From NCBI GenBank assembly GCA_017499595.2, contig CM039001.1, positions 2,108,001 through 2,172,000 of the forward strand: DNA of 64,000 nucleotides, given 5' to 3'. Positions 3,810 to 37,049 of this stretch are shown here, piece after piece; positions within the stretch are counted from its first letter, which is position 1; each line of letters begins with the position of its first letter. The stretch is from Psilocybe cubensis (Eukaryota). The position numbers and the translations under genes are program-made. Under the pieces are notes generated by a model. It was given only the letters and a program-made list of their open reading frames with translations, searched no databases and had not been told where the DNA came from.

Positions 3810-5129
3810 TCACTTGTCCAGTGCGAATAGAGATACAGCGTTCCCTCCTCGTACACCATCTTTATCTTCTTGAGACCATCCCTGTACAGCTTCAATAGCT
3901 TCCAAATTTTCAACAACACTCTTCCACTTTTCTGTCATCGACAGTGGAGGGAAGAATGGATGGTCTGTTCCAAAAAGCATTCTTTTGCTCCCAGTACTTC
4001 GATCAGCACCGTTCTTCACAACCGAGGATGTAGTTTCATATTTCGGTGCTCTGGAAAGGATGTCACTTGCAAAACCTAGTTCTTCTGGTCCATACGCCAC
4101 GGCGTCGAGGTATAATTTTCCTAAATAGTACCTTGCATCATGCTTGAGTCTTGATGCCACCACCGGATCGTGGTCGATACATGAAGCGAGTCGAGAAGAA
4201 AGGGCAGGAAGTGCGCCTCCCGAATGCGCAAGGAGCAAACGGAGAGATGGAAACTTGTCGAAGACTCCTGATAAAATTAATCTGGTGGCGGCCTGCGAAT
4301 ATATAGTAAACTACAGATTTGATCAAAAAAGTCAAAAAGGCATACTGTGGTAGTTTCAAATGGGAAACCCAGAGCAAGAGGGAGGACATGTCCGTTATAT
4401 TTATCGCCCCAAGCACTTGCGTCAACTCCATAATGCGGGTGTAAAAACACAACGAGGCCGGCCTTCTCAATTGCTGCCCATACTGGGTCAAGGGACTCAT
4501 CGTCCAGACCCTTTCCGATTCCCCGAGTGCCCATAATAAGACCACGCAAATGTGGCAAATTGCCAATTTGATGGACTACATCGACCAAAGCAGACGTGGT
4601 TATTTCCGGGACCAAAGGTAATAAACCGAAGCCGTACAATCTCTTAATTTCATGACTGCTCAGGGAAGGACCAGTCGAACAATATTCTTCGAGGTCGTTA
4701 TTCAATTCGGACGCAAGCGTCTGCGCTTTTGAAGCTGGAAGAAAGTCCAACCAGGGGTTCGCAGTGCTGGTAAAGTCCCGCGACCATGAGCTTCGCGAGT
4801 GAGGAATCGGGGACTCGTAAGCATACCTTACGATTGAGACATCAATACCATGTTTGTCCATAAATTTTAACTTTTCTGGTACAGATGTCAGAAAAATACA
4901 GATTAAACAGAAGTCCCTTTGTACCTTCTCTGTCCCAGTACTGTGATCCTACTGGGCGACCACCACTTGGTTCATGGTCCAAAATCAACAACCGATCATC
5001 TGTTGCGCCTTCAGGAGTGGTTGTACTCCGAATAAAAGGAACTGAAGTTCTGGATCTCAGCAAAGCAGTATATCGCGGGAGATATACATGCGTGTGAATA
5101 TCAACAAGCAGTTTACTGGTAAGTGACAT
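3810..5129 (-). CDS. Amidohydrolase-2 family decarboxylase, most like uracil-5-carboxylate (isoorotate) decarboxylase, IDCase; 4 exons
   Basis: VDIHTHVYLP metal HxH, GRPV, STANPWLDF, GIGKGLDD, VFLHPHYG, GHVLPLALGFPFETT, LLAHSGG, MLFGTDHPFFPP; these blocks match fungal IDCase as recalled rather than ACMSD. Confidence 0.85.
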
Positions 5130-26910: not shown

Positions 26911-27494
26911 TATTTCCCTCTCACTATTCCTTCTTTATTGACCCAACTATCCACAAGCTAAACCTAAATCGTCCCACATTAACGTCTACATACAGCAAGA
27001 AACCCTCGGTGGTCATTTATATACAGTGGCACGATACATTTACATTCATGTTTGTTCAGTATTTTGTTTTGTACCATTTTCTAGCATCTTATCCCCCATT
27101 TCATTGCCTGTAAATACCTACGTAGGATTCATTCGTTTATCTACAACTTCCCTTCGATCTACCATTTGACAGATACGACTTGAATTTTTATTTAATTGCG
27201 GCCAGCATGCTTGCTCAAAATAAAAATTTGAAGACATTGGCCATCGGAAATAGAATTATTAATATAAAAACAATTAAATATAATATTAATAATCAATGAG
27301 TAAATTTGTAAATCTAAAATGATTGTTTATTTGTGTTTATAATGATTATCTAATCAAGTGCTTAGGCCTTAGGTCTTACACGGAATTGACACGTCTCAAA
27401 GTGTCGACTGCTAGAACTCAAAGCGAATCTTGACATTATTATACTATTATACTGATAGCAGACAAGCATCTTGACCTCATCCTAGTGGCACAAC

Positions 27495-27923
27495 ATGCTA
27501 AAATCCATTACCATTCTCCCTCTTTTCTTTCTACTGAGTCTTCAATTAGTCTCAGCTCAGTTCAACTTCTTCGAAAACATGTGGGGTCAACAGCAGCAAC
27601 ACCAACAACACCAACAACGAGCAGGGTCGTCTCAATGGGCAGCTTATGCAGATAGTGGTACGGGAAGAATTCCGGAATGATCAATACAACACTAATTTCT
27701 GCAATTGCTAGTTTCTTGTTCACAATATCTTTGCCCGGATACTTTAGACTGTGTCGTCAGACCATCGGATTGCCCGTGTCCCAACGCGGAAGACGTAAAA
27801 TGTGTCGTTCCGGACATGGAAGGGTCTCTGTATGATGCAACGGTCATCTGTACACGAGGACAAGATGGTTGTGCAGAGGTGGAGAAGCTCTTGAAGAAAG
27901 GCTCTAAACCGAAGAAGAAGTAG
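27495..27923 (+). CDS. LCL2: Long chronological lifespan protein 2 (Lcl2)-like small secreted/ER protein, 2 exons
   Basis: Signal peptide, [37 protein letters not shown] Cys pattern; intron about 27658-27711. Confidence 0.82.
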
Positions 27924-28605
27924 ATCTTGAATGGAGAACTTCAATGCTATTAATGGCTGTGAAAATAAGATCTGATTATTATACTTACAGAATCTACTTA
28001 ACCGAAGTGCGCACCGCAAAGCTGCAGAGAGGCGTCCATTGTTGCATGTTGCACACCATTACGTGGTCCCATGAATTTATGGATCAAATGTCTATTCATT
28101 GGGCAGTGTGATTGCCATCCTCCTGATTATACACCTCTTGGCTTTTACAATCTCACATGGCTTTCCCAGGCAGATCGTGAGGCAACGGCAAAGAATGCCA
28201 TGAAGACGGCCCGATGCTCACCTTGGTCGTCTGCTTCCCAGAATGTCCTTTTTGCTCAGGCTGAGGTTTACCGTCATATTGATGCTTTTCCTATTTTTTT
28301 TTGACATCCAGCCCACTGCATTTTTTACTTACCGTTAGCAATCCGATTACTTAAAAGGCTTTTAATTAACCTTGATTTTCCAGATATGCATTGGAGGTTT
28401 GTTGTAAGCTGACGGTCTAATTTTAGGCATTACGTATGGCGGGACCTCCGGCAAACTGTGTGTGCGTACTCCCTCTTTTCTTATTAGAATTCACATTATG
28501 TCATGCTATTCTCAGACTTAAGTATCCCATCTGATACTATCCTCGTCTTTATAAACACAAAGGTGTGAACTCACTGGCGAGTAAGGTCCTCAATTTCGCA
28601 TAACA

Positions 28606-29566
28606 ATGCTCTTCACCTTAGTATCTGCGGCTTTGTTGCTTCCCTGGTGCTTTGGTCAAACATCTACCCCCGACTTAAACAATGTAACAACAGCATTTTC
28701 TTCGGCCCACATCGTACCGGATGTTGTACAGTCCTTCAATCCTATGGATGGCGTAAACATTTCTTTTACAGACCCTGTCTCTGCACAAACAGTAGACGTC
28801 GTACCGGGGATCTTGTTGACAATGCAACGTATGAATAATGGCCTTGCAAAATCTGGCAATACTTGATCTATTTTATTTTTTAATCAGAAACCTCTATGCC
28901 TCCGGACCTCACATTGGTTACTACAACATCTGACTCCAATAGCAGTGCCATGTTTGTTGTGGTTATTGTGGACCCCGATGCGCCTACTCCCCAGAATCCC
29001 AACGTATCAGAATTTCTTCATTTCCTGGGAGGAGATTTCACTGCCGGTTCTACATCCGGTCTTTTATCTAACAATTCACCAGCACTCGCGGAGTTCTTCC
29101 CCCCTACCCCTCCCGTTGGATCTGACCCACATAGGTTAGTGATACCTCTGAACCTTGCAATCATTTATTTACATTCGATAGATATGTGCTCCTCGTTTTT
29201 GATCAGCCCGACAGTTTTGACGTGAATGGGCCAACGTTAGTCAATGCCACAACCCCCAGGACAAATTTCAGTATCTCCGACTTTGCTCAAGCAATCAATC
29301 TGGGAGATGCCATTGCTGGTAACTTTTTCCTTGTTGGTCCCATGAACGCATCAGCGTCAGCGACACCTTCAGCTCCACCATCTACTCCTTCGATACCCTT
29401 GGCAAGTTCGCCTACTTCCGGAGACACTTTGGCGTCGCCCACACCTACATCGAGTGCCACATCGCCAAACACATCTCCTTCTTCGAAGGCTATGAAAGCA
29501 AGATCCGCCATTTCACCATTTACCGCCGCCATCGTTGGGGTGGCTGCATTAGTATTTCAATTGTGA
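28606..29566 (+). CDS. Secreted, probably GPI-anchored PEBP (phosphatidylethanolamine-binding) family protein, 3 exons
   Basis: Signal peptide; IVDPDAPTPQNP, FLHFLG, PPTPPVGSDPHRYVLLVF; S/T/P stalk and hydrophobic C-terminus AAIVGVAALVFQL. Confidence 0.85.
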
Positions 29567-29988
29567 TTCGACACTGCTCCGTTACCTCGAAAATTCAATT
29601 TGTACCGTTTCGAGTGTCTGTATAACATGGACATAAAATAACAACGTTGAAAACCACGAATGAGGACTGCAAGACAATGTTTTGTAGTAATTGCATGGGG
29701 CAAAGAAGTTGAACCGTCCCAAACTACTTGTACCTGAGTCCTGCCAATGTGCTCCATGGGTAACAGATACAGGATTCCTTGGGAAAATCATATCATTGTG
29801 TGACTCCTTAGTGAAAGTTGTTCAATCAGCTGAAAAATTATTGTCACCGGTCGGCGGTTAGCAACGGCGTTAATTACCCAATAATTATAGTTAAGTTGAT
29901 AGGTATATGTAGTAAGTGGAGGCAGCTGACAAATATAGACAAGCAACCGTCTCGGTGTTCGTCCAGCCTCAAAAGTGAAACTACCATC

Positions 29989-30469
29989 ATGGCCCTTGCA
30001 CGACCAACAGTAAGATATTCTTCCGACTCAAATTGCAAACGCTATCTGACTTACTCATGAGTAGACCAAACTCCCCCCTGGAGCCAACCGAATCCTCTTT
30101 GTCAAGAATTTGAACTACCAGATCACAGGAGAGGACCTGTACGATTTGTTCGGGCGCTATGGCAGCATCCGTCAAATCCGAATAGGAAATGAACAAAAAA
30201 CTAAAGGCACGGCATTTGTCGTATACGATGATGTTATGGATGTAATTATCACTTGGATCGTCGTTTTCTGCGCGTTACGTCTCATTTCAGGGTTTTAGGC
30301 TAAAAACGCGCTCGACCATCTGAATGGTTTCCACTTACAAGAACGGTATATCGTTGTGTTGTATCATATGCCTGCGAAGCAAGATGCTGCAGCTGCAAAA
30401 GCTGATCTTGCCAGGAGAGAGGAAGAGCTTGCTCAATTGAAGAAAAAGCACGATATTGGGGATGCTTAA
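29989..30469 (+). CDS. SF3B6: U2 snRNP SF3b p14 (SF3B6/SF3B14a) branch-site RRM protein, 3 exons
   Basis: [25 protein letters not shown]...[14 protein letters not shown]...[34 protein letters not shown]; stop TAA 30467-30469. Confidence 0.95.
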
Positions 30470-30686
30470 AGGTAAGCTGTTCGATGTTGTGTTTATATAC
30501 AACAATTCTCTCATAGACTACAGTTCGGGACTCACAGACTTTTCTTCTACTGTACAACAACACTGATGCTCCTGGTACTCCCAGTCTATATATTCTGTTA
30601 TTAATTTCATCGCGGATGTTACTTTTACTATGAGTCTCATTCTTCTTCTGCTCCAGGCGTTCTGGTTTCGCGTTTTGTCGACCCCA

Positions 30687-31180
30687 TCAAGCCTTCCCGC
30701 TGCATGCAGGACATTCCTTATCGATATGTGGGGAGTATTGTTGTGGATATTGCCGACTGGTATGTAATTAGATCTGGCGTACAATAATTGTTTAAATGAC
30801 ATACTATTGCCAACATGTCTGAGTGCAACGTGGAGGCACGCAGTCCTTTGGATGTGCGGGACTGAATTTGCAATTGACAAGATTGCATTTTATCTTCGGG
30901 AAATTTAGAGTTTGGCAATCACTGTTCACGCGATTGACGTACCTCTTCATCGGGCTGTACAATAATTCGATATGAGCGAAGAACGATAGTTCATGGGTTC
31001 CAGTCTTACCATTGTGACCCCATGGTTGCATCTAGACGAGCAGACATAAATTATAGGGCAAGGTTGATGCTTTCATAGAATCACTGACTTTGTGTAGACA
31101 TTACGGACTCTGGTTCCGTAAAGGTTGGTAAAGTAAATAGTTTTAAATAATTCGTCTACTCACCTTCGCCAATAGCACAT
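30687..31180 (-). CDS. 76-aa Cys/His-rich microprotein encoded by six exons (not recovered by the ORF track)
   Basis: Exons 31180-31164, 31109-31089, 31031-31010, 30954-30943, 30893-30805, 30756-30687 (17+21+22+12+89+70=231 nt); five GT-AG introns of 48-57 nt; MCYWRRVRNVYTKCNHGVTMPDEEIKCNLVNCKFSPAHPKDCVPPRCTQTCWQYRQYPQQYSPHIDKECPACSGKA*. Confidence 0.88.
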
Positions 31181-31228
31181 GATGATAATAGAAGTGGGGG
31201 ATGAAGAGCTGAGGGAAAACATCAATCA

Positions 31229-31235
31229 TTTTATA
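31229..31235 (-). promoter_or_regulatory. Putative TATA box of the Cys-rich microprotein gene
   Basis: TATAAAA on the minus strand about 50 nt upstream of ATG 31180. Confidence 0.45.
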
Positions 31236-32189
31236 GGTAACAGGGAGAACCAGGATCTCACTTCTGCTCAACCGCCGCATGCAGTTTGAAATTTCGGAGT
31301 GGTGTCTACCCGCGATCTCGTACAAAGCTGTTAACTACCTCTGAATCTTGTTCTTTTGAGATCTCACTATGCCTCATGCAACTCTGTTTAGGTTTGGTCC
31401 CGTCCTGGCATATAGTCGGGGGAATTGAAGGCTAATCCCTAAGTTCAACCCTCCCAGAGCTCGCTAGTAAAAACACTTGTTCTGTTCAAAAGGAGTGTTA
31501 CGACATTGTGTGTGCACCCCCCACAGATATATTGACGTAAGGCTGAAGCTATTAACCCGCCACGCGCATCTCTATGGTGAATGCGATCGAAAATCTCGCA
31601 TACACATCTAGGCTCACCAAGGAAGGCACGTCGCTTACCGATCTGTGTCTCTCTGCCTTTGTTTGAGCTTTGCAGTCCATTTTAAAAGCCTATAGACTGT
31701 ACCTGGCGTAACTGGTAGTTATAGGAGCCAACTGCCCGGCAGTCTCTGGCAGCCTTCATCTGCCTTGATTACTACTCTGATTTCCAATAATATCAAAAGA
31801 TATTATTGTCTGTACATATCTGCAACAGGAGATTGAGGTCCAGAACGCTCCTTCAGAGTCCGTCTCAAACCATCTGCATCTCATAGTTCGGTTATGAGGA
31901 AACAACAGGCATCGGCGCAGTATGCCTTTGCGCTTTTCATGGTTCCGGTTTAGTTGGGCCGGAAGTATATCTAGACTGAACATCGTTGCCCCTCGGCAAT
32001 ACCGAAGTTTTCATAATGCTTGGACGTTACTTTGCCGCTTACCTGCTTACTTCTTCCAGTTGAAGTCAATCGGAAAATCTAACATCTGGAATACATCTAC
32101 CGTTCTTGGCATACGCGAAAATTAACACTTGATCAGTACAGGTGCTAATCCGGTGTAATAGCATATATAATTGGGTGCAGAGAATGAAA

Positions 32190-33140
32190 TCAGACATAAA
32201 TTCATTAAAACACATCATCGCACATGTAAGGACATCGAGTAGAGATTAAAGCTGATGAAAATTCAAGGCCCTTATAGATAAATGGCAGCCTTCCTAAAAA
32301 GCAGCGACGTCCATAATACGCAGGTTTTGTCTATTCTTCCGTCGGCCCTTTAACTTCCAACCTCGACTCCTCAATAGTGCCAGGGCGAACTGGCCCAAAA
32401 TTCTTAAAAGCTGCCAAACAACCGTTTATTTGCAATAGGGTCGGCTGATTTCGAGGAGTTACCTGGAGATACCCGTATGCTATAGCTGCTACTTAGATCC
32501 AAAATGCCTAAATGTTGGCGACAAGTTACAGCGAGGCGCTCATCGGACTCCATCGGCTTGCGCAGCCTACAGGCTACCATACAGGATCGACGACTTGTAC
32601 CGTGGTCCGTTAAACGGATTTGAATCTATCTGAATCTGAACTCACTTTTGGCGATCGTGATCATAGTTTGCCATGCGTTGATAACGTGAGAGGGTACTAC
32701 TTCCGCGTGTGCCAAGGGTCTACCTAGGTCTTCCTCGAGCTTCCTCCAGCTTCATCCACGAGCCTCCGTGACAAACGTACCTTACATGGGAAGTTGACAA
32801 GAACTTACAGAGCCCCAGGAGGTCTAGTCTAGAGTTTGGATTCAACAGCCAATGTCACATGATGAACATAGAACACACGAGGCCATCCCGTTCTTCTGAA
32901 AGCAATTTTTGTCATTAGTACTCTCTAAGTGAAAACAGCCAGCGAATATGCCAAACACACGGGCCACCTAAAAAAAGAAAACACACTATCAGAAAAGCAA
33001 AATAGTTATTGACGTCGCGCGAACCTCACGTGGGAGATAGACTTCCAGGGAAAAGGCTAAATATTGATATTGTATATAAAACCTACCTCAAGGCCACTAA
33101 GTACCGAAAAGATATTAAGGGGAAGGGGGAATCACGCGTC
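32190..33140 (-). other. Probable multiply spliced transcript without a convincing ORF (lncRNA or unresolved micro-exon gene)
   Basis: Minus-strand donors GTAGGT 33086, GTAAGT 32808, GTACGT 32780, GTGAGT 32645, GTAACT 32462; acceptors at 32968, 32896 (branch TACTAAT) and 32411; upstream CCAATGACGCGTGA then a pyrimidine tract. Confidence 0.35.
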
Positions 33141-33422
33141 ATTGGCGAGTGTTTGGTAAAACGTGTCAATAGTAGACTGCCTCGGAATCACAGAACACCA
33201 AAGAAGGAGAAAACTAGAAAAAGGCGTGGATCCAATGTTTGTCTTCTAGTTCAAGTTGTGTCAAAGTTGTTTCGGATATAGTGTCAAGATATCAAGATTT
33301 GAGCAAAGGAGTCAACTTTTACATCCTAAAACAATGGCTTAATAACTGCAGAATTAATAGAATACACGAAGTGGTATCGCAGTCCTGTTCAGTAAGAATA
33401 GGTCATGCCTATCGAGTATAAA

Positions 33423-35059
<1,637 letters not shown>

Positions 35060-35152
35060 TTTTGAGTGGTGGTGGTTGAAAGAAGATCGGAGTTTAAATA
35101 TGAGAGTTGGTTGTCTCCCTCACCAGTCCTACTTAACCTTCCAGACTCGACT
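35060..35152. promoter_or_regulatory. 93-bp bidirectional promoter between eIF4A-III and Prp9
   Basis: Divergent ATGs at 35059 (-) and 35153 (+); central tttaaata with a pyrimidine-rich leader facing each gene. Confidence 0.7.
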
Positions 35153-37049
35153 ATGGACTCCATCATTGAAAACCAACGCCAAACTCATGAAGAAGTTGAA
35201 CGTTTAGAAACTGCCCTCTATACCTTACTCTCGCGCCCTAGCCCTACCCATGAACGCACTCTCCAGAAAGAGCACAAGGCCTCACAGATGCTTGACCGCA
35301 TCGCCGCCAAGTTCACAGACTTAAACAATTCCTATCAGGATGACGACGCAAGGAAAGCTGAGCTTAACGCACTATCCGCTCCCTCTCAGCAAAACGATCT
35401 GTCAGAGTTTTACTCGCGGTTGGTAAAAATCCAAGAACACTACAACAAATACCCTGATGCTATGCCAGTTGGCTTCGACCTTGAGATTGCTGCATTCCTC
35501 GATGAACCTGGTCAGGAAGGTGAAGAGGACTATGAAGAAGAAGATCGTACGTCATTGTTTCTCTGGTCTAGAGCTACTGAAATTTTATTTCTCTATGTCT
35601 GGATAGCTATTGCCTTGCTATTTTCGGGCGAAGAAGGGTACGGGAAATACCTTGACTTGTATGCAAACCATACTGCGTACAACAACCTCAAAAATATTGG
35701 AAAAAGGCCTGGGTATTTGCAGTATCTAGACCTCTTATTGGCTGCTCAAAATGGGCCTGTTCATTCCGAACTTCCTAAAGAAACACGGTGCACCAGAGAC
35801 TTCGAAACGTGGGTTTATTGTATTTGTTAAACCTTATATCAAATTCACCGATAATGGGATGCCAGGTATATCAAAAATTTACATAGCTATCTTTTATCTT
35901 TCACCAAAAGGACGCAGCCGCTCGTCGACATCGATACTCGGCAACGCGATGCTGCGTCAGAATTTGACCAGAAGTGGGAGGAACATGAAATACCAGGCTG
36001 GGAAGTTGCTTCTGAGTCCAAGTCCCTGACAAACGGCAACGAAAATACAGGAATATGGTGCAGCGCGTGTACGAGTATTTCGTGTTGGTTGTCGTTCCAT
36101 TTCCTTAACTTTGTTTCGCAGGCCAAAAGCATTACTCGAAGCAAACTGTTTATGATGCACATCTGAGCTCGAAAAAACACATAAAGGCTGTTGCTAAACA
36201 AGCATCTTCAGGAGAGCGTCCCTCGAACCCGAATGGGTCCACACAATCTGCACACACCCATAACACATCACAGTCGTCCTCCAAGCTTCGCATCCGAAAC
36301 TCGGCGTATTACACGCACCTCGCTACTGACCTCCTCGTGTCACTGGTTTCAATATTAAATGAAACAAAGTCCAACGTGGAACGTCGCTTCTCACTTACGG
36401 CTAGGGAACGCGAGCAAGAACTTTTGGAACAAGCTAAACCTGCACCTCCACCACCCAAATCCTCTGCCGATGCCGCCGCCGAGGAAGAAGAAGAAGAAGA
36501 GAGAATATATAATCCACTCAAGCTTCCCCTAGGTTGGGATGGCAAACCAATCCCTTATTGGTTATACAAGTTGCATGGCCTAGGGGTCGAATACCGCTGT
36601 GAAATCTGTTCTGATCATGTCTACATGGGCAGGTGGGCTTAATACGTTTCTGCTCCAATGATGACAAACTAAATTGGAACTGTAGGAAAAACTTCGACCG
36701 ACATTTCCAAGTAAGTACTCCGGCTGTCTGCTCCCGTTTCATAAATCATCCGGACTGTTTAAATCTAGGAATCACGGCATGCTTTTGGAATGCGAGCGCT
36801 TGGTCTTCCGAATACTAAACATTTTCACGAGATCACGCGCATCGAAGATGCACTTGCTTGTATGTCGTTTTATGCCAATGAAAAAGCTGTCTCCCCTGCT
36901 GACTCGGCATATTAGTGGCTGAAAAGCTGAAACAGGAAGGGAGACATGAGATTTTTGAACAGGAAACAATGGAAGAACTGGAAGACGATGAAGGAAACGT
37001 GTACAACCGCAAAACATATGATGATCTTAAAAAGCAAGGACTGATTTGA
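35153..37049 (+). CDS. PRP9: Splicing factor SF3a60 / Prp9
   Basis: [114 protein letters not shown]. Confidence 0.97.

Follow-up and report, generated by a model that had tools for sequence, protein, structure and literature searches.

PHF5A/Rds3 of the SF3b complex holds three zinc ions in about 110 residues. The gene described here lies on the minus strand of a 64,000-nucleotide stretch of Psilocybe cubensis DNA (contig CM039001.1, positions 2,108,001 to 2,172,000; hereafter the window, to which all coordinates refer) and encodes a mini-protein of 76 residues. The mini-protein resembles PHF5A/Rds3 in being small and stand-alone, with about a dozen conserved Cys and His residues and no other domain, and its gene adjoins the gene of an SF3b subunit. 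Membership in the PHF5A/Rds3 family was ruled out, as the spacing of the ligands is unrelated, no Pfam family matched at E ≤ 10, and no match in sequence or fold was found in the PDB. The mini-protein would work like the small multi-zinc modules of eukaryotic complexes, and it is a member of no curated family tested.

Two further groups of small Cys-rich proteins invite comparison. Metallothioneins are small, Cys-rich and intracellular, as the mini-protein would be. The mini-protein differs from that group in that only 12% of its residues are Cys, in the lack of C-x-C or C-C clusters, and in its conserved aromatic residues and predicted regular strands. Twin Cx9C (CHCH) proteins carry two C-x9-C pairs on a helix-turn-helix hairpin.

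The closest relatives belong to a family of Agaricomycete hypothetical proteins that is unnamed and uncharacterised, and by sequence comparison the window gene is a further member of it. The family includes CPB84DRAFT_1757435 of Gymnopilus junonius, BJ165DRAFT_1521324 of Panaeolus papilionaceus and PLICRDRAFT_33756 of Plicaturopsis crispa, as well as a paralogue, CC1G_04861, of Coprinopsis cinerea. The window product shares with these proteins its length, the Met-Cys start, the motifs C-G-H, P-D-E-E, C-K-F-S..H, C-W-Q-Y and C-P-x-C, and the positions of its introns. It has Asn in C-N-H and in C-N-L, where most orthologues have Gly and Asp, respectively. The locus thus draws attention to a strongly constrained, Agaricomycete-wide family for which no name, Pfam model or paper was found.

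Gene structure and splicing

The coding sequence runs from 31180 to 30687 on the minus strand, and its six exons add up to 231 nt, or 76 codons and a stop. Exon 1 (31164-31180, 17 nt) contains the ATG at 31180 and encodes the invariant Met-Cys start; it was placed by the arithmetic of the exon lengths and by the N-termini of the homologues. The arithmetic, the RNA-type contigs and the alignment of homologues together define exon 2 (31089-31109, 21 nt), exon 3 (31010-31031, 22 nt), which encodes the C-x-H motif, and exon 6 (30687-30756, 70 nt), which encodes the terminal C-x-x-C and runs to a TGA. Exon 4 (30943-30954) is a micro-exon of 12 nt encoding the P-D-E-E motif, recognised from letters inside a contig joint, and exon 5 (30805-30893, 89 nt), supported by the arithmetic and by homologue searches, encodes five of the nine Cys together with the invariant Ser and His. 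Four of the six coding exons are therefore micro-exons (17, 21, 22 and 12 nt), and all four encode conserved residues.

The five introns are intron 1 (31110-31163, 54 nt, GTGAGT..CAG), intron 2 (31032-31088, 57 nt, GTCAGT..TAG), intron 3 (30955-31009, 55 nt, GTAAGA..CAG), intron 4 (30894-30942, 49 nt, GTACGT..AAG) and intron 5 (30757-30804, 48 nt, GTATGT..CAG). A first-pass annotation, made from the letters alone, had proposed this hidden six-exon gene with these exon sizes and canonical introns. The arithmetic is exact and returns the same peptide, and the proposal is borne out by RNA joints, by homologues and by the conserved exon plan described below.

An open frame alone is weak evidence at such a locus. 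Free GT..AG threading from ATGTGY starts across 1.2 kb around the gene gave 1533 open models of 55-120 aa, and the case therefore rests on RNA and relatives. The six-exon model came out on top of the 1533 when they were scored against the family profile (126 bits); since the profile includes the window peptide, this score is a consistency check and no independent test. Regular expressions for introns, applied crudely to the window, failed to tell genes from non-genes, and Rfam and tRNA scans of positions 27000-36000 gave no match.

Sequencing runs of the same organism were available from two studies: X1 and X2 from study P1, labelled 'RNA?', and X3 to X5 from study P2. The runs X3-X5 contain 0.96-0.97 of the sampled words of the window. 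Contigs of X1-X4 were compared over positions 29800-35200. X3 and X4 each span this region in one piece with zero joints, and we therefore take them to be DNA. In the two neighbouring genes, the contigs of X1 and X2 are joined across introns, with GT..AG ends in SF3B6 (the RRM gene on the plus strand) and CT..AC ends in eIF4A-III (the helicase gene on the minus strand). X1 and X2 are assembled contigs of two runs from a single study, and their RNA nature is on record only as a guess; we treated them as RNA because of these intron-type joints.

The first-pass annotation predicted five junctions, and introns 2, 3, 4 and 5 are indeed joined in these contigs. Intron 2 corresponds to the X1 joint 31031>31089, where 57 letters are skipped with CT..AC on the plus strand, at a depth of 109. 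Intron 5 corresponds to the joint 30756>30805, with 48 letters skipped, at depths of 132.6 in X1 and 249.5 in X2. A further X1 joint, 30895>31010, has 10 letters between its sides; these letters and two ambiguous bases equal the reverse complement of exon 4, so this one joint covers introns 3 and 4. None of the three joints occurs in X3 or X4. A joint for intron 1 is not among the 15 of 18 joints that were listed, and here the prediction is reached by a less direct route. Record 4 of X1 (333 nt) matches positions 31262-31525 only from letter 67 onward, and its first 66 letters comprise 21 and 45 nt. We read these 66 letters as exon 2 (21 nt) followed by a 45-nt exon, 31208-31164, from which the removal of intron 1 and of a further 53-nt intron can be inferred. 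Splicing of intron 1 would thus follow from the length arithmetic of this record and from the homologues.

The contigs of X1 and X2 do not cover positions 31610-33057, which is not a sign of silence. One X1 contig, 30866-31111 (depth 35.7), is unspliced across introns 2-4 and might represent a precursor, a transcript that retains these introns, or carried-over DNA. The window and the runs differ at 31082 (C>G), 31123 (G>A), 31428 (ATT insertion) and 33789 (T>A), all outside the coding sequence of the mini-protein, with the differences at 31082 and 31123 falling in introns 2 and 1, respectively. They are probably strain variation.

Transcript leader and upstream region

The same X1 record points to the 5' end of a longer isoform. 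Joined to exon 1 would be a leader of 28 nt (31181-31208, minus strand) with an A at -3, preceded by a putative 5'-UTR intron of 53 nt (31209-31261, minus strand, GTGAGA..CAG) and by an upstream non-coding exon (31262-31525, minus strand). The contig with this long leader has a depth of 14.5, compared with 109-133 for the X1 contigs of the coding exons, depths being a poor measure here. The long leader contains four upstream ATGs, which open uORFs of 2, 7, 23 and 40 aa; the last uORF, 40 codons long, runs across the main ATG. In this isoform the upstream ATGs would hamper translation of the main frame.

The TATAAAA reported about 50 nt upstream of the gene is present at 31235-31229 on the minus strand, 49-55 nt upstream of the ATG. 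Its position was thus given correctly, but it falls within the putative 53-nt intron 31209-31261 of the longer isoform. The gene-free upstream stretch also exists; its size, first put at about 2.2 kb, is corrected to about 1.9 kb, counted from the ATG to the 3' end of the eIF4A-III gene. The complex regulation that had been read into this gap finds no support in the present data.

Conservation and coding status

A search with exon 5 found six hypothetical proteins of Agaricales at 61-86% identity, and a search with P0003, a 76-aa Gymnopilus protein, found 16 proteins in Agaricales, Boletales and Amylocorticiales. The window product aligns with the annotated homologues end to end and free of gaps at 55-84% identity, with 61 of 76 residues identical in the Gymnopilus protein P0003, 62 of 76 in the Panaeolus protein P0007, 57 of 69 in P0002 and 42 of 50 in P0004. 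The 76-aa length of the product is confirmed by this alignment. Homologues with faulty gene models point to the same intron sites. In the Hypholoma model P0013, an insert of 20 aa sits exactly at the site of intron 4. Of 146 family proteins, 12 stop precisely where exon 5 meets exon 6, a point at which reading on into the donor gives a stop.

A family profile built from 16 proteins was run against 1.84 billion representatives and retrieved 135 of them at E ≤ 1e-3, 83 at E ≤ 1e-10 and 7 at E ≤ 1e-30. All 20 distant members that were sampled are hypothetical proteins of Agaricomycetes, from the orders Agaricales, Polyporales, Russulales, Gloeophyllales, Jaapiales, Auriculariales and Cantharellales; a wider-alignment search likewise gave 26 proteins, all of them Agaricomycete hypotheticals. 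The resemblance first noted to small fungal proteins of the type 'MC...C.H...C..C' is thus supported, and homologues with the Cys/His pattern conserved occur across the Agaricomycetes. Several copies per genome are found, for example three in Agrocybe pediades. An Atlas cluster has 378 members from Basidiomycota and is without a Pfam family; an Atlas search limited to named clusters gave no usable match.

No informative domain fusion was found among the longer family members. Two long hits among the 135, P0112 and P0145, are tandem-repeat artefacts, and a third, P0071, is a probable fused gene model. Pfam gave no match in six longer members, and Pfam-A at E ≤ 10 returned zero families for the orthologues P0003, P0006 and P0002, which stood in for the window product. 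A PDB sequence search with the family profile reached E 0.33 at best (a retroviral integrase N-terminal region), which is not significant. Literature searches with the locus tags of 12 members, four short motifs and keywords, which did not extend to supplementary tables, found nothing on the family.

When 146 family proteins were compared with the window by tblastn, exon 5 was the sole significant family match, and no second gene copy was found in the window. A weak cluster at 4536-4631 (best E 0.012) was discarded, its translation being without the Cys pattern. Neither the exon 5 search nor the P0003 search returned a protein identical to the window copy, which is therefore probably unannotated. 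A real gene, probably overlooked by annotation, was recovered here by reading the raw sequence; of its six coding exons, four measure only 12-22 nt. A study on Coprinopsis cinerea puts the share of gene models with an internal exon no longer than 15 nt at about 9%, and overlooking such an exon often breaks the model (PMC12230235).

A scan of metagenome contigs yielded 30 environmental loci, in which the exon plan was examined by holding the exons to 17-21-22-12-89 nt and accepting every intron of 40-100 nt with GT..AG ends. This exon series gives a family-type peptide in 19 of the 30 loci (14 distinct sequences), through GT..AG introns of 45-65 nt. The other 11 comprise one cDNA-like contig (L001), four variants (L004, L006, L010, L025), three loci of paralogue type (L008, L009, L015) and three truncated contigs (L017, L018, L030). 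In the best models of L003, L005, L016, L019, L023, L027, L028 and L029, an extra intron splits the last coding exon. In L023 and L027-L029, the resulting 23-nt exon ends after a Q-Q-Y motif, the point at which the annotated proteins P0016 and P0005 derail.

The window gene was compared with the 14 distinct environmental orthologue coding sequences over the first 53 codons. Third codon positions account for most of the differences (for example 27, against 7 at first and 6 at second positions). Values of dN are 0.07-0.29. Eleven of the 14 comparisons are saturated in dS, and the three in which the ratio could be computed give dN/dS of 0.05, 0.05 and 0.12. The shared exon series and the third-position bias together indicate that the gene is protein-coding and under purifying selection.

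These data also bear on a different account of the locus, in which a spliced non-coding or antisense RNA overlaps the 3' UTR of SF3B6 and the 76-codon frame is fortuitous. The overlapping 3' ends of the two convergent genes, the 1533 open GT..AG-threaded frames possible within 1.2 kb and the four upstream ATGs of the long-leader isoform would all suit such an RNA. A fortuitous frame is nevertheless scarcely credible for a protein that is conserved end to end across several orders, with near-invariant Cys and His columns, exon phases conserved in 19 of 30 loci, a third-position bias and a dN far below dS. That the minus-strand gene is real, expressed and protein-coding is close to certain.

Conserved residues and predicted fold

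Conservation was counted by column over 154 domain rows aligned to the profile. The candidate ligands are C2 (conserved in 91 of 92 aligned rows), C14 (120 of 122), H16 (118 of 123), C27 (133 of 142), C32 (139 of 141), H38 (135 of 138), C42 (130 of 136), C47 (128 of 129), C51 (122 of 128), C69 (69 of 69) and C72 (67 of 67). The window product has all 11 of these residues, nine Cys and two His, and at every one of these positions at least 94% of the aligned family rows agree. The first-pass annotation had counted nine Cys and three His as possible metal ligands; the nine Cys, H16 and H38 are near-invariant, but H64 is His in only 27 of 85 aligned rows and drops out. The exceptions at the ligand columns include swaps from C51 to His (three times), from H16 to Cys (once) and from H16 to Asp (once). 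Metal ligands would be expected to exchange in this way, disulfide partners would not.

Given these residues, zinc binding by the mini-protein appears rather probable. Eleven is not a multiple of four, and three four-coordinate ions would need either a bridging thiolate or a twelfth ligand, for instance the amino group freed on Cys2 when Met is removed; two ions, with three residues to spare, would fit as well. With its invariant set of nine Cys and two His, the protein lends itself readily to metal analysis and structural work.

AlphaFold2 was applied to the Gymnopilus orthologue P0003 (61 of 76 residues identical to the window product), modelled as a metal-free chain. With 16 close sequences the pLDDT was 48, and with 55 diverse members the mean pLDDT rose to 93.3, with a pTM of 0.64 and 73 of 76 residues at 90 or above; the confident model thus depends on the deeper alignment. 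Strands are predicted at residues 3-11, 17-19, 23-25 and 56-61, and short helices at 46-50 and 70-73. Foldseek against the PDB gave zero matches at E ≤ 0.001 (best 0.63), and VIA-align against 48,161 chains gave five with Z ≥ 2 (best 3.1), a missing match being no proof of a new fold. The confidently predicted structure of the family would accordingly seem to resemble no solved fold.

The conserved Cys could instead be paired in disulfides, in an oxidised protein that is either imported without a presequence into the mitochondrial intermembrane space or released from the cell. The mini-protein is indeed small, Cys-rich and without a presequence, and it has one C-x9-C spacing, from C32 to C42. 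Membership in the twin Cx9C (CHCH) group was rejected, because C32-C42 is the only such spacing and because the model consists mainly of strands with two short helices, unlike the helical hairpin of that group. An odd number of conserved Cys (nine), two near-invariant His that adjoin Cys, and the exchanges of Cys for His, His for Cys and His for Asp at the ligand columns also argue against disulfides. Finally, by inspection and not by a predictor, there is no signal peptide, as first noted: in place of a hydrophobic leader, the N-terminus forms the first strand of the conserved predicted fold. We regard an oxidised, disulfide-bonded protein as highly unlikely.

The same ligand conservation would be seen if the mini-protein were a metal carrier, a buffer or a redox sensor (with an Fe-S cluster, copper or a zinc-thiolate switch) and not a structural zinc module. 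The C-terminal Zn(Cys)4 dimerisation domains of PerR/Fur, which are weak structural neighbours, lend this idea some colour. Their resemblance amounts to Z 2.6-2.7 with an rmsd of 5.2-5.9 over 51-52 residues, scores that are far below significance and, by the tool's own note, far below the chance level of unrelated models. PerR/Fur proteins show no sequence relation and belong to another domain of life, and the mini-protein is without their DNA-binding domain. A carrier or sensor is also at odds with a Cys content of only nine in 76 residues, with the absence of any match to a known carrier family in the Pfam and the PDB sequence and fold searches, and with conserved aromatic and polar non-ligand residues, which point to a fixed fold and a specific surface. 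We think a carrier, buffer or sensor role unlikely.

S35 is conserved in 137 of 138 aligned rows. Many residues that are not ligands, among them this invariant Ser, a W-Q-Y motif and a Pro, equal the ligands in conservation, and for this reason we read the mini-protein as a binding module and not as a metal store. The window product is basic, with a pI of 8.8 and 11 Lys and Arg against 6 Asp and Glu. In our preferred reading the mini-protein would fold as a compact, strand-rich domain held together by metal ions bound to the 11 candidate ligands, with zinc as the most probable metal, and would serve as a small intracellular binding module whose role is a guess. We consider it quite likely that this expressed six-exon gene encodes such a stand-alone, zinc-scaffolded 76-aa module inside the cell, with two to three ions as the likeliest number.

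Genomic neighbourhood and possible link to splicing

The mini-protein gene lies between two splicing-related genes. On the plus strand, the last two coding exons and the stop of SF3B6/p14 occupy 30065-30469, as judged from an RRM_1 domain and RNA-type joints, and the X1 and X2 contigs define SF3B6 introns at 30010-30064 and 30242-30298. The orthologue of this neighbour on L001 matches p14/SF3B6 chains at E 1e-37. Upstream of the mini-protein gene, a minus-strand DEAD-box gene at 33119-35100 is closer to eIF4A-III (E 3e-136) than to eIF4A-I (E 4e-108), which is what places the mini-protein gene in this company. eIF4A-III is the core helicase of the exon-junction complex, and SF3B6 is the branch-site protein of the U2 snRNP.

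Some 220 nt separate the stop of the mini-protein gene from that of SF3B6, in the window as in the environmental locus L002. Past its stop, SF3B6 has a 3'-UTR intron at 30472-30523 on the plus strand, starting 2 nt beyond the stop (joint 30469>30522, cut +2) and seen in both X1 and X2. A second plus-strand intron in the overlap zone, at 30597-30656, is seen in X2 only (joint 30596>30657, GT..AG, depth 76). The stretch 30568-30686 is transcribed past the stop of the mini-protein gene and is its probable 3' UTR, overlapped by the 3' UTR of SF3B6. It is covered by contigs that carry no strand, namely X2 record 7 (30568-30686) and X1 record 2 (30522-30684); X2 record 8 runs over 30657-30756 and is joined to 30805. 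The two plus-strand introns and the layout of the contigs show that the convergent 3' ends overlap in the window. The SF3B6 message reaches at least 30686 and so overlaps the whole 3' UTR of the mini-protein gene.

Wherever the downstream flank is long enough, in 22 of the 30 environmental loci, the mini-protein gene and SF3B6 stand tail to tail; the other eight loci have at most 306 nt of downstream flank, which falls short of SF3B6. On the upstream side, eIF4A-III exons are found in one of the 30 loci (L004, positions 78-714), the flanks being too short elsewhere.

This setting leaves a slender chance that the mini-protein is a new multi-zinc fold, confined to mushroom-forming fungi, with a function tied to pre-mRNA splicing or mRNP assembly. 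The eIF4A-III and SF3B6 neighbours and the micro-exon architecture are all that suggests the link. Four micro-exons in a row must be joined correctly in its own message, and the mini-protein might therefore be an accessory protein of the spliceosome. Alternatively, the gene might act as a gauge of splicing capacity, by way of its demanding splicing and its antisense overlap, that feeds back on SF3B6. The overlap with SF3B6, taken on this reading to recur wherever the flank is long enough, makes a link to splicing testable. A complex prediction of L001 SF3B6 with the mini-protein scored 0.00 against a mark of 0.34 with the alignment unused, and speaks neither way.

Among the environmental contigs, two cDNA-like ones carry sequence of both genes. 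Spliced forms of the mini-protein message and of the antisense SF3B6 message are merged in the single contig L001. Where exons 1 and 2 meet (positions 429-450), this contig is 4 nt shorter than the conserved frame requires, which may be either an alternative splice or an assembly error. L018 contains a spliced SF3B6 message together with the C-terminal part of the mini-protein.
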